Shown: positions 3,219 to 32,895 of the stretch, piece by piece
How the letters are laid out: the number at the start of each line of letters is the position of its first letter
Numbering within the stretch: the first letter of the stretch is position 1
From: Candidatus Zhuqueibacterota bacterium
GTDB lineage: Bacteria > Zhuqueibacterota > Zhuqueibacteria > Thermofontimicrobiales > Sulfurfontimicrobiaceae
NCBI GenBank assembly: GCA_016927835.1
Contig: JAFGMA010000148.1
Location: 1-33,264, forward strand
Direction: 5' to 3'
DNA length: 33,264 bases
The notes under the pieces: model-generated
Told to the model about the DNA's origin: nothing
Databases searched by the model: none
Seen by the model: the letters and a program-made list of their open reading frames with translations, nothing else
Position numbers and translations under genes: made by a program

Positions 3219-6200
3219 ATGAGCACTCCAGATCATCCAGAAAGCCAATTCGAAGCCCGATTCGGATTGAAGCATACGCCAACGGGCAAGGTTGCAGAAA
3301 TCAGCAAAGCCACCGCAGAATCCGATTGCCCCCCGAAAGAGCGTATTAACCTGCACATCGGAAATCCGGTCCAGCACATTCGCCTCGATGAACGCTACGC
3401 AGAATTGGTTTTCGGAAATGCGCTGAAACAATTCAAAGGACTGATCTGGTCCGAGCGCCAACAGCGACTGATCGAAACGCAAACCAGTCCGGTTCGCGGC
3501 AAGCTGCTGAAATTGATATTCGATACCATCGAAAAAGCCAACCCGTACATGCCCCAGGGTGGATACACTCCCCAAAAGCCAGGTACGTTGATCAAGCAGG
3601 TTCATGCATGGCTCACGCAAAGCCAGGATGAATCGCTGGAATATAGCATCGGTGCCGAGGCGGATCGACCCGAAGTTGCCATCACCAGCGGCGGAAGGAC
3701 TGAAGCGCTGAAACTGCTGCTCCAGGTGATTGAGGAAAATTTAAAAAGCCCTGACAAAAACCTTGTCTCCCTGGAAATTCCGCTCTCCGCATGCACAACA
3801 CGAACGTATAGCGGCAACATTACGTTGCTTGAAGGCACCGAAACCGACCTGCTGAAACAACTCGATCTCCTGGTTTCGAATCCGCAAACACATATCGGTT
3901 TTGTCTTACTTCATAAAATTTATTCAAAAGAATTCCGCCGGGAGTGCGGGGCACTCGCCGTGCGCAAAAACCTGATGCTGGTTGAGGCGAATGATGCCGC
4001 GAATTTTTACTCCCTTGCCAGAAGCCCGGGGATGGCGCAGCGCCTGTTGCGCGTCGTTACGCCGCAAGCTATTGATAAGCGCCTTGGGAACAGCTCAATC
4101 ACGTTTGTGCTGGGCAACGCGCTCTATATCGAAGCGCTGAATCTGTTGCATTTCCTGAAAAAAGGCACGCCTTCTGCCACTGAAGTCAAACTGCTCAGCT
4201 TTTTGCTGAATGACAGGGGATGTCTGGATGAACCACTATGGCGCGACCTGACAGCGCAGCACGGGGCAGCCTATTCGAAACCGCCAGAATTCGAAAACGC
4301 CCTCCGGATTCCGGGGCAACGTCATCCCGGTGTCCCCGATTTTGAACGCATCACCCACGCCCTATCGGGACTCTCATCACGAACCGGGGAGAATATTACC
4401 AGATTAGCCCGATCGGCTGAAAATTTAGGCGGCGATTTTGCGCGCCGGGCGGAAGTCATTTCCAGGAAAATTTTCAAGGACATCCATACGGACTTCTTCG
4501 GCGGGAAATCGAGTTGGGAAGTTATCGAAAATTTTTTCCTGAATTTGAATTCAGTACCGTTTTTAAAACAGCTTGAAGAGGCGTTTTTGGCGCAATTTAC
4601 AAAAGTGCATCCGGAATTCGATCCTTCGAATACCATTTCCCTGAGCGGATCGGCGCGCACAGCGCTCAGTTCAGCCGCCGAAGCCTGGCACCTGAGAGAA
4701 GCGATCATCCCTGATTTGAGTTGGACAATCGGCGACGCTATCCCCAATGTTACGGCTGTGCCGTTGAATGACGATTTATCGATTTGCGCTGATGGCATCA
4801 TTCAAACCATCTCGGCAAAAATCGATTCCGATCCCGACTGGCTCAACACAGGCTGTGTGGTGTTGAATAATCCGCATAATGCTACCGGAAAAATAACTCC
4901 GGAAGCCGAAATCGAAAAAATTCTCGTTTTTTGCCTGTCACGCGGGATCACCGTCATCGATGATTTATCGTATTCGAATGTGATCATCGCGGATCGGTCA
5001 GAACGAAACAAGCGCTTTCCGGTGAAAAATTGCCGTCAACTGACGAACCAATTGATTGCCAGGGGATATTTGCCACGAGATGCTTTTCGAACATTAATCA
5101 CGATTCGATCAATTTCGAAGACCGATTGCAAAGCCGGCGCCCGCCTGTGCGTGGTTGAAATCCCGGACAGGGCAATGCGCGAGGATTTTTTGAAAATCAC
5201 CGCCGAAATCGAGCCGAACCGGATGGCATTGCTGCTGTCATACTTGTTTTATCGAAACGGGCTAGATTTGCTGGAAGCATTCTGGGCGGAACGCGATCAA
5301 ATCATGTGGGAACGCATGCAGGCGCTGCTGATCGGCATCAATGACATTCCAGCCAGTGACAATCCGTACAGCATCCGGTTGATGCCTCCCCAGGGTGCGA
5401 TGTACCCGCATCTCATCGTGGATAAATTGCCCCCAAATGTGAATGTCGATGATCTAAGCACGAATTTAGCTGTCAGCGGCATCGGTCTCATCCCCATGAC
5501 CAATTTCGCCCGTACCGAATCCAGTTTTCACTTTGCCACTCGCGCATTCCGCTTGACCCTTGGCGGAGATAATGATCCATCCCGGTTGAAAAAACAGACC
5601 GCACGTCTCGTGGCGGAATTGACAACTTCAATCCAGCAGATCGCGTATGATTATACCCTGCATTCAACGGCAAAGCATGAAAACGCAGCTTTCAGCGTCT
5701 CACACCCCGGTGCAGATTTATTTCTTCGTGAGTGCAAAACCGGGTTCGAAATGTATTGGAACAAGATCGAGTCCCTCGCCAGGCAACGTATCGATTCTAT
5801 CTGGCTACCGTGGGAGCGCAAGCAACAGCATTGGGGCAGCAACAAGCATGATTTTTTATCGATTTATTTGCCCACCCGCAAATCTGTTATTTTGAGCAAA
5901 TTGGAAGATTACGCGAGGCTGACCGGAAACTTGCGCGAAAATTTCGCCTCGATTCCATTTCAAAAAAGGATTTTGAATCGATTTTGTCATGAAATTGAGC
6001 CTTCTTCTGAATCGATCCGGCGGGATCAATTCCAAACGCGGTTGTTCGATCGGACAGTTCACCCCACACAGGTGTATGCACTGGCACTTGAAAAATCGAT
6101 TTCAGAAATCATTGACGCAATTATAAACAAAAATGGTGATTCACTCCCGTCACCATCGCACCTGCTCAGACAATTGCAACTCGAATACATGGGTGAAAAC

Positions 6201-8933
6201 ATCGCCATCAAATCGGCAGAAGAAGCTGAAGAAGCAATCCACGATCTCGATCTGATTTCCCTGGTCGAGGATTATAGCCATTATTTTTATGGTGCGGATT
6301 TGAATTTAATATTATCGCTCTGGGGTGATTGGGATGGCAGTCAACGCCCAAGTGGTCAGGGACATACATTGGTGGCAGCCACACTGATTGCAAATGTATT
6401 GCGGCTTAGCGACCTGGTGCGCTTCATGGATGAATTGGGAATTTTGAGCGCCTCAGCGCGCCACATCCTGAATGAAATCGGTGCGATTGAAAAAAAGATT
6501 CAGAAATTTATCGAAATACTGGATAATATCACCAAATTAACCACAGAGTTGGAAGCGCGAATTCGCAAACATCTGGATGCGTTGGAACCGCCCGGGCGAA
6601 TGCTCAGAACCTTGCGCAAGCTCGGATTGGCGCGCGATCCCATACAGGTCGTATGGAAACATAATGACCGCAACGAACGGCGGATGCAAGCCTATCGCCG
6701 CGAACGCTCGACCGAAATACTGCGCTTCTTTAAAATCAATTATCAGCTTTGCGGAGAGATACAGCGTCTCATTCCGCACATCGAGCAGCACCTGCACCAG
6801 CCGGAGCTCCTCGAAAAGCTGGCGACGTATAAAAATCCGTTGAAGCGATTCTATCTGACACCTCGAATTCATCAGAAAATTATCACTTCGAAAGATCCGT
6901 TTACGATTGATACCACGGTCTACAACCTGGTTGAAATCAATAAAATGGGCGCGCAATTCGGTCATCCCGGACTCGTTCTCAGCCTGCAAGTGAGTATGAC
7001 CAATCGTGCCGATGCGATTATCAGGCTGGATAAAAAATTGCGCGATGAATGGGAACGGGTAAACCGCGAAAATCCGTCGATTCAACCGACACACATTCGC
7101 ATTGTACCGCTGTTCGAAGAAATCGAAATCCTTCAAAATCTCGAGGCGTTTCTCGATGAAATCTGGAATTATGCCCATGAGAGCAAACGCCTGGAACAAT
7201 CGATCCCGGATCGATTTTGTGAAATCATCGGCGAATTTTTCATCGCCGGATCAGACCTCAGTCAGCAGGTCAGTCAGACACAAGCGCTGGTGCTCTTCAA
7301 GCAGGCAAAAGCGTGTTTGAATACGTATTTATTGAAAAAAGGACTGGCAGGTCGAATACGTATAAAATTCGGAAGCGGGGAATCGGCACAGCGCCAGGGC
7401 GGCTATTTTGATCCGTACGCAGCGAAAAAAGCACTCCAATTGCCCGATACACACACCATAATAGACCAATTGCATGTTGACGGTTTCACGGCTGCCGCAC
7501 TGCAACAGGCGCGCTCACCTCTCAACGGGATTTTCAGCTCGAGCGACTTTCGAACGTTTCAATCGAACCTGGTGGAGAATTTGCGGCAACTCCCGGCAGA
7601 TGCCCTGGTAAATATGTTTCATCACCTTCGAACCACCCAGGCGACTTACGAGAGCGCCATCCAGAATGTGACACATACGTATTGGGGATCTCGACGCCGG
7701 CTGCAAGAGGAAATGCACACCCAATTGAATTTGCTCATGCAAGGCAGGCTCTCGCCGATTTACCTTGAATTTGCGCAACTGGTACAAAAAAATTTCAAAC
7801 ACATTCTTTATGGCAGCGCCGAAGACATGGCTGGGATCCATGCTATTTCCCTCTTCCTCTCGCGTGCGCTGCTGTCTGTTCGAGATCGACCCACGGTGCG
7901 TCCCACCAAAGAAACCGGTGAAGATCGCGGACGCCAAATCGTTGAACGACTATCCGGAACCCTGCCATTGAGCGAGCATGGCACGTTGCTTCGCGCCATT
8001 GGTCATAATAAAGCCCAGACAATGCTTCTGGCGATTAACCAACTCACAACGGGTCTGTTTCGCGCCATGCGAGAATTCCTCGGACAGGCAGGCAATCGTG
8101 ATGAACAAATCTTCAAGCTGCAAAAAGAAATCTTGCCGCATTTGCCCGTCAGGGATATTTTAAACACGCTCAGGTTGTACCACGCGCCAGATTTGCCTTA
8201 CCTGCGCATGGTCGAGTCGGCTTTCCCGCCCGGCAACAGCAGTATCAAGCTTTTATATGAGGAGCAGCGCGTCATGGGCGACTTGATACCGTACCTGCAG
8301 GAAGAATTGCTCCGCAGAAATGGGCTGGCAATGCTCACCAGGCATCGCACTCAAACCAGCATACTGGCACCAGAGGCGCTGCGCGCGATTCGCGCCGATC
8401 TGGCAGTCCTGCTGCAGCCGAATATCTTCAATACCGATATCCGCGAGCTTTTCGGAGAGCATGGCATTTCGGATGGGCGGTTAAAGGGTATGCGGCTGGA
8501 ATTGGAAAAACGGAAAATTATCGCAGCGACCCAATCCCAAATCTGGCAGCTTATCAAAGAGCCGATTACGGAACAAATTTACAGCTTTTTTGAACTGGCA
8601 CAAGCGATTAAAGCGCTGCGAATAGAGGGAAAAATTGGGCATCCCCGACTCAATATTGTCTCGCGCAGCCAGGTAAGTCGGCTGGGATCGGAAGTCAGCC
8701 GAATGTTGCGCAATGTGGCGGATGACAGCATGCGACAATTCCTGATCTCTGCTGTGCAGTATTTGCTCTATCTGCCTGAAACAGTGGAGGATATTCCCGA
8801 AGCCGTACTCATCGCCCTGCGTGACGTTCAAAAAATTCTCAGCCTTGACGAACAAGCTGTCAGCCGGCAGGATCAAAGTTATTTGCAATACCTCTTTTTG
8901 AAAATTGCCCGAATCGGCGGGGATTGCGGTTGA
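3219..8933 (+). CDS. Giant 1904-aa cytoplasmic multidomain protein: degenerate aminotransferase-like module, PLP aminotransferase fold-type-I module, and a C-terminal region with a PEPC-like motif block
   Basis: A 5.7-kb ORF with no interruption. aa 43-240: INLHIGNP, AITSGGRTEAL, VSNPQTHIG, YSKEF (AspC-like motifs, incomplete). aa 470-650: TALSSAAEAW, VVLNNPHNATGKIT, ITVIDDLSYSNVI, SISKTDCKAGARLCV (NPxNxTG / D / SxSK-x5-GxR, the PLP-lysine motif set). aa 1255-1400: QVSMTNRAD..VPLFEEIEILQNLEAFLDEIWNY..FIAGSDLSQQ..IRIKFGSGESAQRQGG. This is colinear with the PEPC motifs ISMA..SD, VPLFETxxDL, GYSDSxKD and FHGRGGxxGRGG, but the Lys and His are replaced. Confidence 0.8.
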   Translation: MSTPDHPESQFEARFGLKHTPTGKVAEISKATAESDCPPKERINLHIGNPVQHIRLDERYAELVFGNALKQFKGLIWSERQQRLIETQTSPVRGKLLKLIFDTIEKANPYMPQGGYTPQKPGTLIKQVHAWLTQSQDESLEYSIGAEADRPEVAITSGGRTEALKLLLQVIEENLKSPDKNLVSLEIPLSACTTRTYSGNITLLEGTETDLLKQLDLLVSNPQTHIGFVLLHKIYSKEFRRECGALAVRKNLMLVEANDAANFYSLARSPGMAQRLLRVVTPQAIDKRLGNSSITFVLGNALYIEALNLLHFLKKGTPSATEVKLLSFLLNDRGCLDEPLWRDLTAQHGAAYSKPPEFENALRIPGQRHPGVPDFERITHALSGLSSRTGENITRLARSAENLGGDFARRAEVISRKIFKDIHTDFFGGKSSWEVIENFFLNLNSVPFLKQLEEAFLAQFTKVHPEFDPSNTISLSGSARTALSSAAEAWHLREAIIPDLSWTIGDAIPNVTAVPLNDDLSICADGIIQTISAKIDSDPDWLNTGCVVLNNPHNATGKITPEAEIEKILVFCLSRGITVIDDLSYSNVIIADRSERNKRFPVKNCRQLTNQLIARGYLPRDAFRTLITIRSISKTDCKAGARLCVVEIPDRAMREDFLKITAEIEPNRMALLLSYLFYRNGLDLLEAFWAERDQIMWERMQALLIGINDIPASDNPYSIRLMPPQGAMYPHLIVDKLPPNVNVDDLSTNLAVSGIGLIPMTNFARTESSFHFATRAFRLTLGGDNDPSRLKKQTARLVAELTTSIQQIAYDYTLHSTAKHENAAFSVSHPGADLFLRECKTGFEMYWNKIESLARQRIDSIWLPWERKQQHWGSNKHDFLSIYLPTRKSVILSKLEDYARLTGNLRENFASIPFQKRILNRFCHEIEPSSESIRRDQFQTRLFDRTVHPTQVYALALEKSISEIIDAIINKNGDSLPSPSHLLRQLQLEYMGENIAIKSAEEAEEAIHDLDLISLVEDYSHYFYGADLNLILSLWGDWDGSQRPSGQGHTLVAATLIANVLRLSDLVRFMDELGILSASARHILNEIGAIEKKIQKFIEILDNITKLTTELEARIRKHLDALEPPGRMLRTLRKLGLARDPIQVVWKHNDRNERRMQAYRRERSTEILRFFKINYQLCGEIQRLIPHIEQHLHQPELLEKLATYKNPLKRFYLTPRIHQKIITSKDPFTIDTTVYNLVEINKMGAQFGHPGLVLSLQVSMTNRADAIIRLDKKLRDEWERVNRENPSIQPTHIRIVPLFEEIEILQNLEAFLDEIWNYAHESKRLEQSIPDRFCEIIGEFFIAGSDLSQQVSQTQALVLFKQAKACLNTYLLKKGLAGRIRIKFGSGESAQRQGGYFDPYAAKKALQLPDTHTIIDQLHVDGFTAAALQQARSPLNGIFSSSDFRTFQSNLVENLRQLPADALVNMFHHLRTTQATYESAIQNVTHTYWGSRRRLQEEMHTQLNLLMQGRLSPIYLEFAQLVQKNFKHILYGSAEDMAGIHAISLFLSRALLSVRDRPTVRPTKETGEDRGRQIVERLSGTLPLSEHGTLLRAIGHNKAQTMLLAINQLTTGLFRAMREFLGQAGNRDEQIFKLQKEILPHLPVRDILNTLRLYHAPDLPYLRMVESAFPPGNSSIKLLYEEQRVMGDLIPYLQEELLRRNGLAMLTRHRTQTSILAPEALRAIRADLAVLLQPNIFNTDIRELFGEHGISDGRLKGMRLELEKRKIIAATQSQIWQLIKEPITEQIYSFFELAQAIKALRIEGKIGHPRLNIVSRSQVSRLGSEVSRMLRNVADDSMRQFLISAVQYLLYLPETVEDIPEAVLIALRDVQKILSLDEQAVSRQDQSYLQYLFLKIARIGGDCG

Positions 8934-25557: not shown

Positions 25558-26712
25558 TCAGGCAAGCACACGTTTCAGCTTTTCCAGCACAGCGTCCAGT
25601 TCATCGTAAGATATTGTCAATGGCGGCAAAAGCCGCAGCACTGTTGAGCCTGCCGGCAAGGTGAGCAATCCCTCGTCGATCAGTTGTATAATATAGGGTT
25701 TGACCTTCTCTTTCATTTCAATACCGATCATCAATCCAATCTGCCTGATCTCCCTGACGCTTCTAAAATTGTATTGAACAAGTCGTTCTGCCAGATATTT
25801 GCCTTTTTCTTCTGCCTGTTGAGCGAGCTTCTGTTCGAGCATAAAATCGATTGCGGCACTGGCAGCGGCACAGGCGAGAGGATTGCCGCCAAAGGTTGAT
25901 CCGTGATTGCCCACGGGCGCTTCGATCTTATCGGAGCACACAACAGCGCCCATCGGGAGACCGCCGGCGATGGATTTTGCCAGGCACAGGATATCCGGCT
26001 CCACATCAAAATGCTCGATCGCGAACAGCTTCCCGGTGCGACAAAAGCCGCTTTGCACCTCATCGATGATCAGGATGATTCCCGTTTCGTCGCACAGCTT
26101 TCGAACCTTTTGAAAATAATCCTTTTCACCCAGGTTCACACCGCCTTCTCCCTGAACGGGTTCGAGAAGGATTGCTGCGGTTTCGGCGGTAATGGCTTGC
26201 TGCATTTTCTCAAAATTATTAAACGGCACGAAGTTGAAACCCGGCACCAGCGGTTCGAAATCCTGGCGATATTTCGGATTGAAGGTCGCGCTCAGGGCGC
26301 CCATAGTTCTGCCATGAAAACTTTTCATAGCGCAAATAAAATTCGGCTTTTTCGCTGTGAATCGTACGAACTTGATCGCGGCTTCGATGCTTTCGGTTCC
26401 GGAGTTGCAGAGGAATGCGCGGGTCAGGCTTTTCGGGGTGATGCGAATCAGCTTTTCGAGCAGAAGCGCTTTTTGATCATTATAAAATGTTCCTGAACAG
26501 GTGATCAGGATTTGCGCCTGCCGGACGATGGCGTCAATGACGGCTTCGTTGGCATGCCCAAGATTGGCGACGCCATGCCCGGCAACGCAGTCGATGTAGG
26601 CTTTGCCATTTTCATCCCAGACGGTGGCGCCCTTTCCGCGGACAATCACCACATCGCGTTTGGGATAGACATCGAATTCATACTGATTCTGCAATTCAAG
26701 GGTAGCGCTCAT
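25558..26712 (-). CDS. lysJ: Class III aminotransferase ArgD/LysJ (acetylornithine / LysW-gamma-Lys aminotransferase)
   Basis: GKGATVWDENGKAYIDCVAGHGVANLGH and LIIDEVQSGFCRTGKLFA (PLP lysine region). It overlaps lysZ by 4 nt (ATGA). Confidence 0.85.
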   Translation of the reverse strand: MSATLELQNQYEFDVYPKRDVVIVRGKGATVWDENGKAYIDCVAGHGVANLGHANEAVIDAIVRQAQILITCSGTFYNDQKALLLEKLIRITPKSLTRAFLCNSGTESIEAAIKFVRFTAKKPNFICAMKSFHGRTMGALSATFNPKYRQDFEPLVPGFNFVPFNNFEKMQQAITAETAAILLEPVQGEGGVNLGEKDYFQKVRKLCDETGIILIIDEVQSGFCRTGKLFAIEHFDVEPDILCLAKSIAGGLPMGAVVCSDKIEAPVGNHGSTFGGNPLACAAASAAIDFMLEQKLAQQAEEKGKYLAERLVQYNFRSVREIRQIGLMIGIEMKEKVKPYIIQLIDEGLLTLPAGSTVLRLLPPLTISYDELDAVLEKLKRVLA

Positions 26713-27500
26713 TCGATCACCGTTCCTTTTTCATTTAAGGCATCGCGCACCGGATGCTCGGTTCTGCCATCGCTGATGACGACTTTTGTGGCGCCGCTTT
26801 CGAACAATTTTTTCAACGCGAGCAATTTCCGTTTGATCCTGCCTTCCACGCGGGCTTCCCAAACCTGGAGTTCGTCGACCGACAGCCGGGAAATTAAAGA
26901 AGCCGGATCATCCGGATTTTTCAGGAAGCCGGGCGCTTCGATCAACTGGATCACCTGATCTGCCTCGAACTCGTTCTGAATGACATTGACAATATCATCA
27001 TTTTCGGAATTTATTGCAACATTATTTTCATCGATAATCGGCACGGAGAGCACGGGTGTGAAATGATTTTCCAGCAACAGCGTTAGCAGCGTTTTATTGA
27101 CGGACTTTGGTTTCCCTGAAAAATCCCTGACAATTTTCCGCTTTCCGCCTTCGTAAACTTTAATCCCGCTGTTGCGTTTACCCTGAATAACCTTGCCGTC
27201 CAATCCGGACAAGCCCACGGCGTTGATTCCGTGTTGCTGGCATAATTCGACGATGCGCTTGTTTTTGAGACCGGCATACGCCATCATCAACAAATCAATT
27301 GCGGTTTCATCTGAGAACACGCTGGAATAACCGGAAATCGATGTGAGCACCTTTTTAGACACCCCGATTTTCTGCGCCAGATCATCTCTTGCAGCATTCG
27401 CGCCGTGAACGATGATGAAAGCCTGTTCGACCTCGGAAAGATCGGCAATGATTCCGCTGAGATTAATCGATTTGCCGCCGCCAATTTTTATGATAAGCAC
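26709..27500 (-). CDS. lysZ: LysW-gamma-aminoadipate kinase / acetylglutamate kinase family
   Basis: MLIIKIGGGKSINL..IIVHGANA..NAVGLSGLDGK is nearly colinear with Thermus LysZ. It overlaps the preceding gene by 13 nt. Confidence 0.85.
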   Translation of the reverse strand: MLIIKIGGGKSINLSGIIADLSEVEQAFIIVHGANAARDDLAQKIGVSKKVLTSISGYSSVFSDETAIDLLMMAYAGLKNKRIVELCQQHGINAVGLSGLDGKVIQGKRNSGIKVYEGGKRKIVRDFSGKPKSVNKTLLTLLLENHFTPVLSVPIIDENNVAINSENDDIVNVIQNEFEADQVIQLIEAPGFLKNPDDPASLISRLSVDELQVWEARVEGRIKRKLLALKKLFESGATKVVISDGRTEHPVRDALNEKGTVIE

Positions 27501-28135
27501 CTGAATCCCTCAATGGTTTCGTTTTCAATTTTCTGCCAACCGGTTTCACCGGGATATTTCTCGGAACACAAGATCAACTCGTTTTCGGTGGTTTTTGTGA
27601 ACATGGTGAAATAATCCGCATCTTCGTTGAAGAGCGAGTGCAAATACAGGAAGCGTTTATCCGAAAGGATGATATTCATCGCCCGGATGTAAGTCGTTCG
27701 TTTTGCGATGATTCCTGTTGATTTTTCCAATGCGGGCAGCATATCTCCGTGATCGAATCGCTTGATATAATTGAAAATTTTTTCAGCGCCAATTCTGCCC
27801 TGTTCCTTGATGCGCACACCGTGCAATTCGCCGTTAAAAATGAAGGCGTATTTATCATCTGCAAACGGCATATTATTCTCGACGGCGATGCCTTCATTTC
27901 GGAAGGCACTTCGCGCGTGCACGAGTAACTGGTTGGTCGCGGGAAAATCCGTCAAATTGTCTTCCCAAATCGGACAAACATTTTTATAAATGCTCCAATG
28001 TCCGTCCTCCAACCAGGCGCAGCCCCAGCCGTCACCCTGGTACTCGCGGCTGTTTTGAGCGATGCGGGCAAACTGCCGCAGATGGTTGCGCATATCGGTT
28101 GGTTGCCGCACTGAAATTGCCAGTAATCTGCACAT
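27488..28135 (-). CDS. Class II glutamine amidotransferase-like Ntn amidohydrolase (YafJ/EgtC-like), embedded in the lysW operon
   Basis: Starts MCRLLAISVR (Cys2 N-terminal nucleophile), with LLVHARSAF and an Ntn-hydrolase-like length of 215 aa. The ATG is 2 nt after the lysY stop (TAGCCATG), and the 3' end overlaps lysZ by 13 nt. Confidence 0.6.
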   Translation of the reverse strand: MCRLLAISVRQPTDMRNHLRQFARIAQNSREYQGDGWGCAWLEDGHWSIYKNVCPIWEDNLTDFPATNQLLVHARSAFRNEGIAVENNMPFADDKYAFIFNGELHGVRIKEQGRIGAEKIFNYIKRFDHGDMLPALEKSTGIIAKRTTYIRAMNIILSDKRFLYLHSLFNEDADYFTMFTKTTENELILCSEKYPGETGWQKIENETIEGFRCLS

Positions 28136-28137
28136 GG

Positions 28138-29202
28138 CTATACCGGGTGAAGTCCCGGAAAATCTAATCCGGTGGTTTCGTCGAAACCGTGCATGATATT
28201 CAATGCCTGCAACGCCTGCCCTGCGGCACCTTTCATTAAATTATCGATGGCGCTGATGACCACCAGCCGGTTTGAATGCGGATCGCTTTCAAATCCGATA
28301 TCGCAGTAATTGGTTCCGGCGAGGAGCTTGGGTTCGGGATAGCGATAGATGCCTTCCCGATCTTTTACAATGCGGATAAAAGGTTCCTTCCCGTAAAAAT
28401 CGCGAAACAGCTTCCAAATATCTTTTTCCGCCAGATTTTCCTTTAAAAATACGTGCGAAGTTGCCAGCGTACCGCGAATAATATCAATTGCGGTGGCGGA
28501 GAAGTGAATCTGAATCGGATTGCTAAAGCTCAATTCCTGCAGCATTTCCGCAATATGACGGTGACCGGTGGATTTATATGACCGGACGCACCCGCTGCGT
28601 TCCGGGTGATGCGATCCTTCATTGGCTTTATTGCCGCCTTCGCTCGAACCCACTTTCACTTCGACAACGGTCCGTGCGGCATCAACTAGGTTATTTTTAA
28701 AAAAGGGATAAAGCGCCAGAATCGTCACGGTTGCATTGCAGCCGGCGCTGGAGATGAAACTGGCATGTTTCATTTCCGCGCGATGCAGCTCCGGAATTCC
28801 GTAAACGAATTTTTCGAGCATTTCCGGTGCAGGGTGGCGGCAGTTGTACCATTTTTCATAATCAGCCGGATTTTTCAGTCTGAAATCACCGCTGAGGTCG
28901 ATGATTTTAGGCGCCATTTTTTTGTACATTTCAATATTCTTCATTGACGTGCCATGGGGCAATGATAGAAACAGCACATCGCATGGCTCTAATTCCGCCA
29001 GCCGGCTAAATTTAAGCTGCGTTACCTTTCTTAAATTCGGGTGTACACGATAGACGAATTTGCCCGCGAATTGCTCCGATGTCACCTGGTTTATCTCAAT
29101 CCGCGGATGGAACAGCAGAAGTCGCAGGAGCTCGCCCCCGGCATAGCCCGATCCCCCTGCAATTGAGGCTTTAAGTTCAGCCATTGGTACCATCTCTCCC
29201 AA
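28138..29202 (-). CDS. lysY: LysW-gamma-aminoadipyl-phosphate reductase / N-acetyl-gamma-glutamyl-phosphate reductase family
   Basis: [19 protein letters not shown](P) fold. Active-site SAGCNATV. C-terminal [11 protein letters not shown]. Confidence 0.85.
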
Positions 29203-30031
29203 TTTTTATGACATAATCGACGATATATTTGGGGATGTCAACACCTGTGGGTGCGATGCTGTTCTTGAACTCCATCGTATAATTCACCTCATTTACGAGC
29301 AAGCCGGTTTCTGTTTCAAAAATATCCATAGCCACGATGCCGCCGCCAACAGCTTTCGCGGCTTTGACTGAAATGTCACCAATATCGGCGGTAACGGGAC
29401 AATTTGAAGCGATGCCGCCGCGCGCGGTGTTGGTAATCCAGTGTTCCGATGTCCTGTAAATCGCAGCGATGCATTTATCCCCGACGACGAAGCTTCGAAT
29501 ATCCCTGCCCTTTTTTTCGATATATTTTTGAATATAAAAAATTGAATGGTGATACGTTCCTAAAACGGTTTTATGTTCGAGAATAGCTTCTGCAGCGTCG
29601 TGATCATTCACTTTCGACAATAACCTGCCCCACGAGCCCACCGCCGGCTTCAATACCGCGGGATATCCCATGTCTTCAATCGCTTCCAGAGCCGATGCCT
29701 CAGTAAAAGCGATCCTGACCTCCGGTTGAGGAACCTTCTTTTCCTTGAGGGCGATGGATGTCAGCAGCTTATCGCCGCAGACAGTGGCGACGTGTGACGT
29801 ATTTACGCATCTTATGCCGGCGCTTTCGAATAGCCGCATCGCGTGCAATGCCCGGGAATGGTTAATACATCGCTCAAGCACAACGTCAAGATCGAAAGCG
29901 TCTTTTCCGAGATTAAATGTCAATTGCCGATCGTCGATCATCACAATCTCAACATCTTTGCGTCGCCGAAATTCATCCAACAAAAGCTTTTCATCTTTTC
30001 TGATCAAAGAATGCAAAAATCCGATTTTCAT
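29177..30031 (-). CDS. lysX: RimK-like ATP-grasp ligase LysX (alpha-aminoadipate--LysW ligase)
   Basis: Near-colinear with Thermus LysX over the whole length: [94 protein letters not shown]. Confidence 0.9.
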
Positions 30032-30068
30032 ATTCCCTCTTTACGTTATATAATAGAGTAAATCCCCG

Positions 30069-31232
30069 TTAACTTTGCTCACTCAAATACCTGACAATAT
30101 ATTTCAATTCAGTGAGATCGACGGTGCGTCCGCGTTGTCCGACTTCCTTGACTTTTTCAAGAATGCGCAGCGCAAACGCCCGGTCCGTATTCTCTTCACC
30201 AATCTGATCCAAAGAATACCTCACCGCCGAGAGTCCGGACATGTGATCGAGAGCGATTTTAGATTTTCTTCCGACAATCGAGGGATCGAGACTCTGGTAA
30301 TGCAATGGATTTTTAAGGGCGGCTTGCGTGTGTACGCCGGCGCAATGTGTGAATGCATTTTCACCAATAACGGGAAAATTCACCGGAATCGGCAAACCGG
30401 AATATTTGCTCACGAGATGGTAAAGCTCGGGCAATTTATTCAAACGCAAATCATCCCTTGCATTGAAATCATTGACTAAAACCGCAAGCAAGATCGCCAA
30501 ATCCACAATCCCGGCTCGTTCGCCGAGACCCATCACCGAGGCATCGATGATTTCTGCCCCGGCGCGATAGCCATCGAGTGCATTTGCCAGCGCCAACCCG
30601 CGATCGTTGTGACAATGCACGGCGATGCGCGGAGAAAGGCTGCGTTTAGCTAATTCATCTTTAAGGCGCGACACATAATCATATAAATTATGTTTTGTGC
30701 CGGGAATCATAAAGCCGGTTGTATCGGCGATACTTATCACATCCGCCCCGGCATGGGCAGCTTCGCTCGCAGCAAAAATTACATTCTCAAACGAAGAGCG
30801 CACCGCATCTTCCGGGGTATACCGAACAACCAGGTCCGGTTTTAGCGCTTTGGCATACGAAATAACCTGGCTGATTTGTTCGACCGCTTGCGTCAGTCCT
30901 TTCGAGTGATGAGTCAATCGTTCTTCGGCGACACAATAAAAAATTCCGAGAAATTGTACGCCGCATTCCAGCGCCAGATCGACATCCGCTTTCAACGATC
31001 GGGCATGGGCGCCGACGCGGGCATGCAAATTTCTGCCGGCGATTTCCTCCACCGCATGTTGTATTTCATCAGTAACCGCGGGGTGACCGGCTTCAATAAT
31101 ATCCAAACCAATCTCGTTCAGCAGATCGGCAATGGCAACCTTGATATGTACATCGAAATAGACGCCTGGCGTTTGTTCGCCTTCTCTCAGGGTCGTATCG
31201 AGCAGACTGACTTTCGGTGTTACTGACCCCAA
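30069..31232 (-). CDS. hcs: Homocitrate synthase (short LeuA/NifV/HCS family form)
   Basis: LLDTTLREGEQ and HCHNDRGLALANAL..GLGERAGI motifs. 387 aa, with no LeuA regulatory domain. TTG start at 31232 with RBS aggagg 7 nt upstream. It overlaps the last 13 nt of lysW (translational coupling). The product name is taken from context. Confidence 0.75.
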   Translation of the reverse strand: MGSVTPKVSLLDTTLREGEQTPGVYFDVHIKVAIADLLNEIGLDIIEAGHPAVTDEIQHAVEEIAGRNLHARVGAHARSLKADVDLALECGVQFLGIFYCVAEERLTHHSKGLTQAVEQISQVISYAKALKPDLVVRYTPEDAVRSSFENVIFAASEAAHAGADVISIADTTGFMIPGTKHNLYDYVSRLKDELAKRSLSPRIAVHCHNDRGLALANALDGYRAGAEIIDASVMGLGERAGIVDLAILLAVLVNDFNARDDLRLNKLPELYHLVSKYSGLPIPVNFPVIGENAFTHCAGVHTQAALKNPLHYQSLDPSIVGRKSKIALDHMSGLSAVRYSLDQIGEENTDRAFALRILEKVKEVGQRGRTVDLTELKYIVRYLSEQS

Positions 31233-31384
31233 TCTTCTTCCTCCTGCGGCGCTTCAGCCAGTGTGAATGGATCCACACCGGTGACTTCGAGTTCTGTGCC
31301 ACAATCCGGGCATTCGATCAATTCGCCTTCCACCGTATCGCTGTCTAATTCGATAGGTGCGCTGCAGACTGGACATTCTGGCAT
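31220..31384 (-). CDS. lysW: Amino-group carrier protein LysW (54 aa) with a non-canonical C-terminal Gln
   Basis: MPECPVCSAPIELDSDTVEGELIECPDCGTELEVTGVDPFTLAEAPQEEEDWGQ: a zinc ribbon CPxC..CPDC plus an acidic tail. RBS aaggag is 7 nt upstream of the ATG at 31384. The terminal codon is CAG (Gln), followed by TAA. The track's longer ORF starting at 31453 lacks an RBS and has 23 extra residues. Confidence 0.85.
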   Translation of the reverse strand: MPECPVCSAPIELDSDTVEGELIECPDCGTELEVTGVDPFTLAEAPQEEEDWGQ

Positions 31385-31418
31385 ATCTGTGCTCCTTTTA
31401 TTTGCTTTAAATCCGGGT

Positions 31419-31441
31419 AAAAAAAAAGCCTGCTGGCTTTT
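31419..31441 (-). terminator. Terminator-like hairpin plus U-run on the minus strand in the lysW 5' leader (or the terminator of the upstream cytochrome gene)
   Basis: Minus-strand RNA is aaaagcc-agca-ggcuuuu followed by further U's (plus-strand A9 at 31419-31427). It sits between the putative -10 and the lysW RBS. Confidence 0.45.
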
Positions 31442-31455
31442 GTTAAAATTCATTT

Positions 31456-31484
31456 AATTTAATAAATTGATAGCTATTTGTCAA
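31456..31484 (-). promoter_or_regulatory. Sigma70-like promoter for the lysW operon
   Basis: On the minus strand: TTGACA (plus 31479-31484), a 17-nt spacer, then TAAATT (plus 31456-31461). Located in the AT-rich 140-nt gap upstream of lysW. Confidence 0.4.
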
Positions 31485-31593: not shown

Positions 31594-32895
31594 TCAATGA
31601 GCGATCCGCTTCCAATAATCATGAAACTCGAATTGCGGGCTGTTGGTATGCGTGTGACATTTTATGCATACCGATTCTCCCACCGAATCCGGGTGCGCTT
31701 CAACGGCTGGATTGATCTTTGTGACATCGAACTGGTGGCAGGCTTCGCATTGCACGGCTGTCAATTCATCCGGAATGCCTGAATCAGGCGTAATCGCTGC
31801 GCCTTTCCAGCCGGTGGTATGGCAGGCAATACAATCCCGATTTGACTTTCGTGATTGCTGAATTGGCAAAAACGCCTGCGCGTGTTTGGAATTTTGCCAC
31901 TTATCGAATTCCAAAACATGGCACTGCCGACAATAAGTGACGCCGAAGATGGGCAATCCCGTGGAGCGTTGTCCTCCCTGGTTACTCAGCATGTTGAATT
32001 CTTCAAAATAAGCCGCCGTCAGGCTATCAATCGATTCATCATCAAGGATTGTATTGTTGATGCAAATATATTCAATATTGAAATCGACCAGCCGTTTTGT
32101 ACGATCCAGGTGCAGATCGAGTCGGCCCACCTGCTGCCCGTCAACGCCGGCGCTGATGACAATTGTATCATGCAGCCGTTCGAATCCGGTCTCGGGCACA
32201 TAAGCCTGGTACCCCTGGACGATTACATCAATGCCCTCGACCTCTTCGGCGACGGTCATTAATTCCTGCCGGGTTACCTGAGCCAACAACACCCGGATGT
32301 CCGCCCGGGATCCGATGTTTTCAAGCGTCTTTTGCAATGCATCCAGCCAGGGCAGAATCTCAAGGCGATCATATTTGGCGGCTGGCATGTATCGAAAAAT
32401 GGATTCTGAGGTGATAGCAGTAATTCCGATCCGGACATCGCCGGCTTCAACAATCCGAAATGGTTGTACCAGCAGCTTCCCGGTCGCTTTTTCAATGAGA
32501 TTGGCGGAAACCAGGGCACATTTAGACCGAAGCAGCTTCGCCTCGAAAAATTCCCACCCGTCAATAAATTCCTGTTCGCTGATGGCGATCGCATCATATT
32601 TCAATGATTCGTACGCCCGGATGACAATCTCATCATTGCGCTGGCGCCCCATTGTCGAAAAAAAGCCACCGCTGTCGAGAAAAATCGATTGGGCTTGCAC
32701 CTTCCGCAACGCCTTGAAGAGCGTCATGCGTTCGGGCAAACCGCCCTGGCATTCCAACGCACAGCCGCAATCGCGGAGCACACCGTTGTTTCTGGTGGTA
32801 AAAACCAGCGTAACTGTCCGCGCCAGAACAAGTTCCCCGAAACAAATTGCGATTCCCGCAAACAGGATGAATTTATGCATTGAAAACCTGGTCAT
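31594..32895 (-). CDS. Secreted tetraheme c-type cytochrome fused to a degenerate 5'-nucleotidase/metallophosphatase-like domain
   Basis: Signal/anchor MHKFILFAGIAICFGELVLA. The N-terminal ~300 aa resemble the 5'-nucleotidase fold (LVSANLIEKATGK, GIDVIVQGY), but the metal ligands are replaced (TTRNNG for the DxH motif, SEQEF for GNHE). There is a Cys cluster DCGCALEC. The C-terminus has four CxxCH motifs (CRQCH, CIACH, CEACH, CIKCH). Confidence 0.75.
   Translation of the reverse strand: MTRFSMHKFILFAGIAICFGELVLARTVTLVFTTRNNGVLRDCGCALECQGGLPERMTLFKALRKVQAQSIFLDSGGFFSTMGRQRNDEIVIRAYESLKYDAIAISEQEFIDGWEFFEAKLLRSKCALVSANLIEKATGKLLVQPFRIVEAGDVRIGITAITSESIFRYMPAAKYDRLEILPWLDALQKTLENIGSRADIRVLLAQVTRQELMTVAEEVEGIDVIVQGYQAYVPETGFERLHDTIVISAGVDGQQVGRLDLHLDRTKRLVDFNIEYICINNTILDDESIDSLTAAYFEEFNMLSNQGGQRSTGLPIFGVTYCRQCHVLEFDKWQNSKHAQAFLPIQQSRKSNRDCIACHTTGWKGAAITPDSGIPDELTAVQCEACHQFDVTKINPAVEAHPDSVGESVCIKCHTHTNSPQFEFHDYWKRIAH

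Follow-up and report, generated by a model that had tools for sequence, protein, structure and literature searches.

A cysteine amidohydrolase gene embedded in LysW carrier-protein clusters and its proposed role in place of LysK

In the LysW pathway of Thermus thermophilus, Sulfolobus and Thermococcus, substrates are bound to LysW, an amino-group carrier protein (AmCP) with a zinc ribbon and an acidic EDWG tail. The attachment site is the gamma-carboxyl of the C-terminal Glu of LysW, to which LysX joins the substrate amine. As an ATP-grasp enzyme, LysX forms an acyl phosphate, for which the gamma-carboxylate is needed. In the Pup system, Dop is both the depupylase and the Pup-Gln deamidase (converting Pup-GGQ to GGE), and lineages differ in whether Pup ends in Gln or in Glu. 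Here we describe a LysW operon in a stretch of 33,264 nucleotides (hereafter the window) from a Candidatus Zhuqueibacterota bacterium (contig JAFGMA010000148.1). LysW, LysX, LysZ, LysY and LysJ are homologous to those of the Thermus, Sulfolobus and Thermococcus pathway and are encoded in one operon. Unlike in that pathway, an in-cluster LysK of the M20 metallohydrolase family is absent, and the gene of an N-terminal nucleophile (Ntn) cysteine amidohydrolase of 215 residues is embedded instead. We consider this protein very probably an enzyme of the LysW pathway. Comparison of gene clusters suggests that it would probably, though by no means certainly, have a dual function, releasing lysine from LysW-gamma-Lys in place of LysK and deamidating LysW that ends in Gln.

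The operon and its embedded amidohydrolase

The genes of the operon and the end of lysW are as follows.

31384..31220, minus strand: lysW, amino-group carrier protein of 54 residues with the tail EEEDWGQ
31225-31223 and 31222-31220, minus strand: terminal CAG (Gln) codon and TAA stop codon at the end of lysW
31232..30069, minus strand: hcs-like gene with a TTG start; HMGL-like and HCS_D2 domains
30031..29177, minus strand: lysX, ATP-grasp ligase; Pfam LysX_preATP_grasp and RimK domains
29202..28138, minus strand: lysY, ArgC-type semialdehyde dehydrogenase (TIGR01850, 392.5 bits)
28135..27488, minus strand: gene of the 215-residue protein beginning MCRLLA, a predicted Ntn amidohydrolase with Cys2 as nucleophile (Pfam GATase_4)
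27500..26709, minus strand: lysZ, [LysW]-aminoadipate kinase (NF010659, 242.4 bits, cut-off 223)
26712..25558, minus strand: lysJ, class-III aminotransferase, ArgD/LysJ-like (TIGR00707, 449 bits)

Open reading frames and hidden Markov model calls agreed with a first-pass annotation, made from the sequence alone, which had placed lysW, hcs, lysX, lysY, the MCRLLA gene, lysZ and lysJ on the minus strand. LysX scored 354.6 bits with TIGR02144 (cut-off 275.6), and LysJ scored 447.6 with the LysJ_Th_th model, under its cut-off of 700. The hcs-like gene fell under both NCBIfam cut-offs (HCS, 330.7 against 413.6; IPMS, 340.9 against 517) and was called HCS because of its position in the operon. Judging from this gene, the product would be lysine, or lysine and ornithine. 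Adjoining genes overlapped by 13 nt (lysW/hcs), 26 nt (lysX/lysY), 13 nt (amidohydrolase/lysZ) and 4 nt (lysZ/lysJ), and 2 nt separated lysY from the amidohydrolase gene. The annotation had given all junctions as 2-nt gaps or overlaps of 4 to 26 nt, which is correct except between hcs and lysX, where the gap is 37 nt. The operon closes with lysJ, and MltG comes next. A family scan of the window proteins found no M20/LysK gene within the 33 kb, and the claim that the operon lacks LysK therefore stands. LysW and the 215-residue protein matched deposited NCBI records with 100% identity (a metagenome-assembled genome, MAG, of candidate division KSB1).

The 215-residue protein passed the threshold of PF13230 (GATase_4) with 32.1 bits against 23, over residues 1-114 only, in keeping with its earlier placement among class II glutamine amidotransferases (GATases) and Ntn hydrolases. 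Its sequence matches to named families were weak, and a comparison with Peptidase_M20 gave no match. An AlphaFold2 model built on a 52-sequence alignment (predicted local distance difference test, pLDDT, 92.7; predicted template modelling score, pTM, 0.91) was examined. According to this model, the protein is a stand-alone alpha-beta-beta-alpha Ntn fold of the class-II GATase type, nearest to EgtC and then to the glutaminase domains of GlmS and PurF. EgtC, an enzyme of ergothioneine biosynthesis (PDB 4zfj/4zfl), has about 20% identity to the protein. The latter is not an EgtC orthologue, scoring 44.8 with TIGR03442 against a cut-off of 218.65, and the genomic context is egtABDE for EgtC as against lysWXYZJ for the 215-residue protein.

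Residues M1, C2, R75, N101 and G102 were invariant in the 52 family members, and M1 and C2 were also kept in four distant members (L101, L129, L155 and L164). The Cys2 nucleophile proposed in the first-pass annotation is thus present throughout the orthologues. In an alignment with GlmS and EgtC reference sequences verified against PDB, R75, N101 and G102 corresponded to GlmS R73, N98 and G99, and Arg75 also to EgtC R87. From established knowledge of class-II GATases, we take GlmS R73 and EgtC R87 to be the binder of the alpha-carboxylate and the Asn-Gly pair to be the oxyanion hole. In enzymes of this fold, an Asp (GlmS D123, PurF D127, EgtC D132) binds the free alpha-amino group of the glutamine or gamma-glutamyl substrate. 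In the MAFFT alignment the position of GlmS D123 and EgtC D132 was occupied by an invariant Gly116 in the 215-residue family. The surrounding motif was RIGAEK, and IG[AS]QK in the distant group. Provisionally, a Gly in place of this Asp would fit a glutamyl residue whose amine sits in a peptide bond, as at the C-terminus of a protein. The replacement would argue against free glutamine as the substrate.

The class-II GATase fold serves many glutamine-dependent reactions, and with such weak matches to named families the protein could have some other role linked to the pathway. It could proofread mis-ligated LysW (for example LysW-gamma-Glu-Glu), act as a plain glutaminase, or be the amidotransferase subunit of an unidentified partner. 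We give these roles little credence. No fused or partner synthase domain was found, the protein being a single domain whose conserved neighbours were the lysW pathway genes alone, and the apparent loss of the alpha-amine-binding Asp would speak against free glutamine. Such roles would also explain neither the LysK gap nor the Gln termini described below.

Distribution of the amidohydrolase and of LysK

By way of the 215-residue protein, 80 genome loci were retrieved, spanning at least eight phyla. They came from Ignavibacteria/Melioribacter (including cultured Melioribacter and Rosettibacter strains), Calditrichia, KSB1, several gammaproteobacterial orders, Acidobacteria, Binatia, Thermodesulfobacteriota and Gemmatimonadetes. 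The gene order lysW-(hcs)-lysX-lysY-amidohydrolase-lysZ-lysJ was found in all 80 as far as the contigs reach. The linkage between the amidohydrolase and lysW is thus tight and not sporadic, a point that the first-pass annotation had raised against itself. None of the 80 loci contained an in-cluster LysK. About 80% of the amidohydrolase clusters encoded a LysW ending in Glu.

For an unbiased sample, a metagenome collection was scanned for the DNA pattern of EEDWG[E/Q] followed by TAA or TGA, ignoring context. This returned 120 loci, of which 111 were true LysW genes. Among the metagenome clusters that could be viewed in full, 16 had the amidohydrolase, 22 had an M20 LysK (in-cluster genes being checked as Peptidase_M20, PF01546), none had both and two had neither. 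The amidohydrolase type made up about 40% of the fully viewed LysW clusters in this sample. Altogether, LysK was present in 22 of the 24 fully viewed clusters without the amidohydrolase and in 0 of 96 with it. L080 was rejected as a possible case of co-occurrence. The hits in this locus were over-extended shadow open reading frames in the LysK query set, and the genes actually present encode a GlcN6P isomerase/PIG-L fusion protein and a glycoside hydrolase.

A second architecture, lysW-lysX-lysY-(hcs)-lysZ-lysJ-amidohydrolase, was found in three loci (L129 5612-6229, L155 4533-5198 and L164 7093-7758). The amidohydrolases of these loci were distant (31-35% identity) and start with MCRFL. They occupy the slot after lysJ, and in the LysK-type loci this slot was filled by LysK in 9 of 22 cases. 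Mutual exclusivity together with a shared slot is the pattern expected for a non-orthologous displacement of LysK, and the comparison of clusters supports such a displacement.

The distribution also bears on an alternative in which the protein does nothing but deamidate LysW-Gln, acting in priming only, and a LysK or an ArgE-like M20 enzyme encoded elsewhere performs the release. LysK is known to lie outside the cluster in some organisms, for example in Thermus, and the comparison here covered clusters. The confinement of Gln termini to clusters with the amidohydrolase would also follow from a priming role. We nevertheless regard this explanation as quite unlikely. The gene was equally fixed in the clusters that encode LysW-Glu, where nothing needs priming, and since these are about 80% of the total, priming of LysW-Gln cannot explain the presence of the gene. 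The ancestral terminus of the clade was inferred to be Glu, and a deamidase alone would leave the contrast of 22 of 24 against 0 of 96 in LysK occurrence unaccounted for.

LysW ending in glutamine

The best start of the 54-residue LysW is the ATG at 31384, behind an AAGGAG ribosome-binding site. The gene ends GAA GAT TGG GGT CAG TAA, reading ...EEEDWGQ-stop, so that the Gln terminus given in the first-pass annotation (CAG-TAA at 31220-31225) was borne out, as was the assignment to the LysW family. The protein scored over the curated cut-offs of TIGR01206 (64.3 against 53.2 bits) and PF21344, Zn_ribbon_LysW (67.6 against 27; 7e-19). It has two CxxC pairs of a zinc ribbon (CPVC ... CPDC), followed by the acidic tail EAPQEEEDWG. 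The LysW chains in PDB from Thermococcus (5k2m_E), Thermus (3wwl_A) and Sulfolobus (3vpb_E) all end EDWGE, and the window LysW aligned with them over its full length. It departs from them at the last residue, which is Gln, and the attachment carboxylate is not encoded. Because LysX requires the gamma-carboxylate, LysW-Gln would not be loadable as encoded and would need deamidation.

Characterised carriers end in Glu, whereas a Gln terminus like that of the window LysW was found in about 15-20% of related clusters. Among the closest 120 LysW homologues in a large protein collection, 101 ended in Glu and 18 in EEDWGQ. The genome clusters had Glu in 53 and Gln in 10 of the 63 loci with an intact terminus (of 80 loci), and 9 of the 111 LysW genes in the metagenome pattern sample ended in Gln. 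Over all loci the Gln codon was CAG in 17 cases and CAA in three. Parsimony on a neighbour-joining tree of concatenated LysX, LysY and amidohydrolase sequences from 79 clusters gave at least nine independent changes from Glu to Gln, starting from a Glu root, with Glu as the inferred ancestral terminus of the amidohydrolase clade. The co-occurrence of Gln-ended LysW with the MCRLLA gene in relatives, which the first-pass annotation had proposed to look for, was thus found in 10 of 63 genome clusters.

The codons GAG and CAG differ by a single G-to-C change, and the terminal Gln codon in the window could in principle be a sequencing or assembly error in an ordinary LysW operon, as the first-pass annotation had allowed. 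This is extremely unlikely. Orthologues carry GAR as well as CAR codons, and Gln was found in 18 of the 120 homologues, at 10 genome loci and at 9 metagenome loci, by means of both CAG and CAA. The recurrence of the Gln terminus in independent assemblies excludes a sequencing error as its general cause. Probable assembly artefacts of other kinds were seen in two lysW genes, one from an Acidobacteria MAG (L059 5967-6115), frameshifted into two pieces, and one broken by masked N bases (L013 4665-4784). A lone LysW homologue ending in Glu, without adjoining lysX, was found on a viral-classed contig (L081 2066-2227, IMG/VR contig IMGVR_UViG_3300030102_006837).

Among directly viewed clusters, a Gln-ended LysW was present in 14 of 80 of the amidohydrolase type and in none of 22 of the LysK type. 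Three of the nine Gln-ended metagenome LysW genes could be viewed in full context, and all three had the amidohydrolase, including L164 with the distant architecture. The other six were on short contigs, and their LysX was 55-100% identical to LysX of the amidohydrolase type and 45-64% identical to that of the LysK type. No Gln terminus was found in the 22 LysK-type clusters and 21 LysK-like short contigs (43 in total). Fisher's exact test gave p = 0.066 for the direct views and 2.7e-4 when short contigs were assigned by the nearest-neighbour LysX. The direct-view two-by-two table is a weak point of this argument, being small (3 Gln), and the clusters are phylogenetically related, so that neither value is a clean probability. 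At least nine independent origins of Gln, against none in LysK-type clusters, is a more robust statement than these p-values. A profile of LysW from LysK-type clusters served for a control search, which also counts for less than its result suggests: all 120 best matches ended in Glu, but the search is biased against Gln termini, and the absence of Gln was given little weight because the invariant Glu of the profile and the narrow range of scores (90-95 bits) push Gln variants out.

Two more Gln-ended LysW genes were found by exact sequence, with the amidohydrolase between lysY and lysZ. In a third, from a Calditrichaceae MAG, the main cluster lacked the amidohydrolase, which was found next to lysJ on a separate contig of that MAG. 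The main cluster of this MAG (L205 1044-8437) contained LysW-Gln, a 223-residue hcs, lysX, lysY, a second lysX paralogue, lysZ, argG and argH; the amidohydrolase and lysJ were at L019 6093-7534. The presence of two LysX paralogues together with argGH points to lysine and arginine being made by one combined system. In a LysW-Gln locus from a Melioribacteraceae MAG, a canonical argC-argJ-argB-argD-argR cluster came directly after lysJ (L055 10830-15537). Here the carrier pathway and an acetyl-cycle arginine pathway with ArgJ stand side by side, and the LysW cluster is thus dedicated to lysine. Because arginine would be made by the ArgJ cycle, this organism would require no ArgE-type hydrolase that could moonlight as LysK.

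In six gammaproteobacterial loci (L041, L044, L045, L047, L068 and L071), lysW-lysX-lysY-amidohydrolase were kept together, with hcs missing and neither lysZ nor lysJ lying within 8 kb. No lysW or lysX was detected in L044, and the LysW detected in the other five ended in Gln in every case. A scan of the flanks of L045 did not separate lysine from arginine.

These counts also weigh on the possibility that the amidohydrolase only replaces LysK, Gln being handled by another deamidase or the Gln-ended LysW genes being defective variants found in this clade by chance. The exclusivity with LysK bears on the release step alone, and most of the clusters, about 80%, have LysW-Glu. We find it rather unlikely, since at least nine changes from Glu to Gln in intact and conserved operons, with none in LysK-type clusters, would be hard to explain without a rescue specific to the amidohydrolase cluster, and hydrolysis of a gamma-glutamyl amide would cover both substrates.

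The leader of lysW (31385..31484, minus strand) contains a promoter-like TTGACA-17-TAAATT, a hairpin with a T-run, and the AAGGAG ribosome-binding site, all recognised by consensus matches alone. The promoter-like sequence and, after it, the hairpin and T-run (AAAAGCCAGCAGGCTTTT TTTTT) are at 31424-31484 (minus strand). The hairpin and T-run come directly before the ribosome-binding site and may be either a terminator for the cytochrome gene upstream or an element of the leader. Scanned against Rfam for a lysine riboswitch ahead of lysW, the window matched no family. The upstream neighbour of the operon (31594-32895, minus strand) encodes a multihaem cytochrome of 433 residues with Cytochrome_C554 and NapC/NirT-like motifs. 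Elsewhere in the window (3219-8933, plus strand), a 1904-residue open reading frame had as its sole Pfam match an aminotransferase class I/II domain at residues 458-784, the remainder being without a family.

Proposed function and implications

The Cys2 protein is the only amidohydrolase of the cluster and has the fold and residues of an enzyme that hydrolyses gamma-glutamyl amides. We suggest that it acts on the gamma-carboxyl amide of the C-terminal residue of LysW. Its main job would be the last step of the pathway, hydrolysis of the isopeptide LysW-Glu(gamma)-N(alpha)-lysine, which would free the amino acid, regenerate LysW-Glu and substitute for the unrelated metallohydrolase LysK. The ornithine equivalent is probably also cleaved in some lineages. 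The general substrate would be LysW-Glu(gamma)-NH-R, where lysine as R would lead to release and hydrogen as R to deamidation of LysW-Gln. A C-terminal Gln differs from the lysine-loaded substrate only in having NH2 where lysine would be, and newly made LysW-Gln should therefore be turned into ligation-competent LysW-Glu by the enzyme that releases lysine. The single-base change from Glu to Gln (GAR to CAR) would then be tolerable only in genomes with the amidohydrolase. The first-pass annotation had offered deamidation and replacement of LysK as two possible roles. Replacement of LysK is the better supported of the two and the likely primary role, given the exclusivity in fully viewed clusters (16 against 22, with none having both), and deamidation is supported indirectly, by the confinement of Gln to the amidohydrolase type. 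The comparison shows the gene content and synteny, the exclusivity with LysK, the restriction of Gln termini, the fold and the conserved catalytic residues, from which we infer what the substrate is, that both reactions take place and that the genomes have no LysK elsewhere.

Several points weigh against this proposal. Support for the enzyme function is comparative only. Exclusivity was established within clusters, and an M20 LysK or ArgE may lie elsewhere in the genomes; in Thermus, lysJ and lysK are both located outside the main cluster. Homologues of the remaining steps are scattered among arginine loci in Caldithrix abyssi (PMC5317091). The equivalence of Gly116 with the Asp of GlmS and EgtC hangs on the alignment register, and hhalign moves that helix by three residues. 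A partner of the very acidic LysW might be basic, and a basic docking surface was looked for, but the net charge of the family was not notably so (median isoelectric point 7.7; 6.1 for the window protein).

The proposed reaction is identical to that of LysK/ArgE, and in some clusters the slot after lysJ is common to both. LysK/ArgE are metal-dependent M20 enzymes, with a fold and mechanism unrelated to those of a cysteine Ntn hydrolase, and the two types are mutually exclusive within clusters. The likeness to Dop and Pup would be a functional analogy. In both cases an ATP-dependent ligase attaches a small acidic protein by the gamma-carboxyl of its C-terminal Glu, and cleavage of the gamma-glutamyl isopeptide and deamidation of the C-terminal Gln would both fall to a single hydrolase. 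Dop is not homologous, having a glutamine-synthetase-like carboxylate-amine-ligase fold and an ATP/ADP cofactor, unlike the cysteine Ntn hydrolase described here. The target of Pup is a protein lysine, whereas that of LysW is a metabolite amine. A bolder version, which we consider unlikely, would make LysW-Gln a true pro-carrier gated by the release enzyme. A LysW-gamma-Glu-S-enzyme thioester, arising on departure of lysine or ammonia, would be captured by aminoadipate, much as in gamma-glutamyl transpeptidase, reloading the carrier without ATP and partly bypassing LysX.

In full-text literature we found nothing tying LysW/AmCP pathways to a class-II GATase or Ntn hydrolase or to a Gln terminus, and a 2025 Thermus paper and a 2026 GapMind preprint mention neither the amidohydrolase nor LysW-Gln. 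The genome paper of Caldithrix abyssi describes an 8-gene locus with LysWXZYJ and Hcs and names neither LysK nor the amidohydrolase (PMC5317091). What appears to be new is that a carrier-protein pathway uses another release enzyme and a carrier made as a pro-form; hosts of this pathway include the cultured Melioribacter, Rosettibacter and Caldithrix. If the proposal is true, it would fill a gap in pathway reconstruction, as many bacteria of wide phylogenetic range have clusters without the last LysW-dependent step towards lysine or ornithine. A cysteine Ntn hydrolase in the place of a metallopeptidase would be a further example of non-orthologous enzyme displacement. The system would also represent a second, independent occurrence of the Pup/Dop logic, in which the carrier is encoded in an inert form ending in Gln and both its activation and the removal of its cargo are the work of a single hydrolase. 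Why such a carrier should end in Gln, a matter of long debate, would then become testable in a simple metabolic system.

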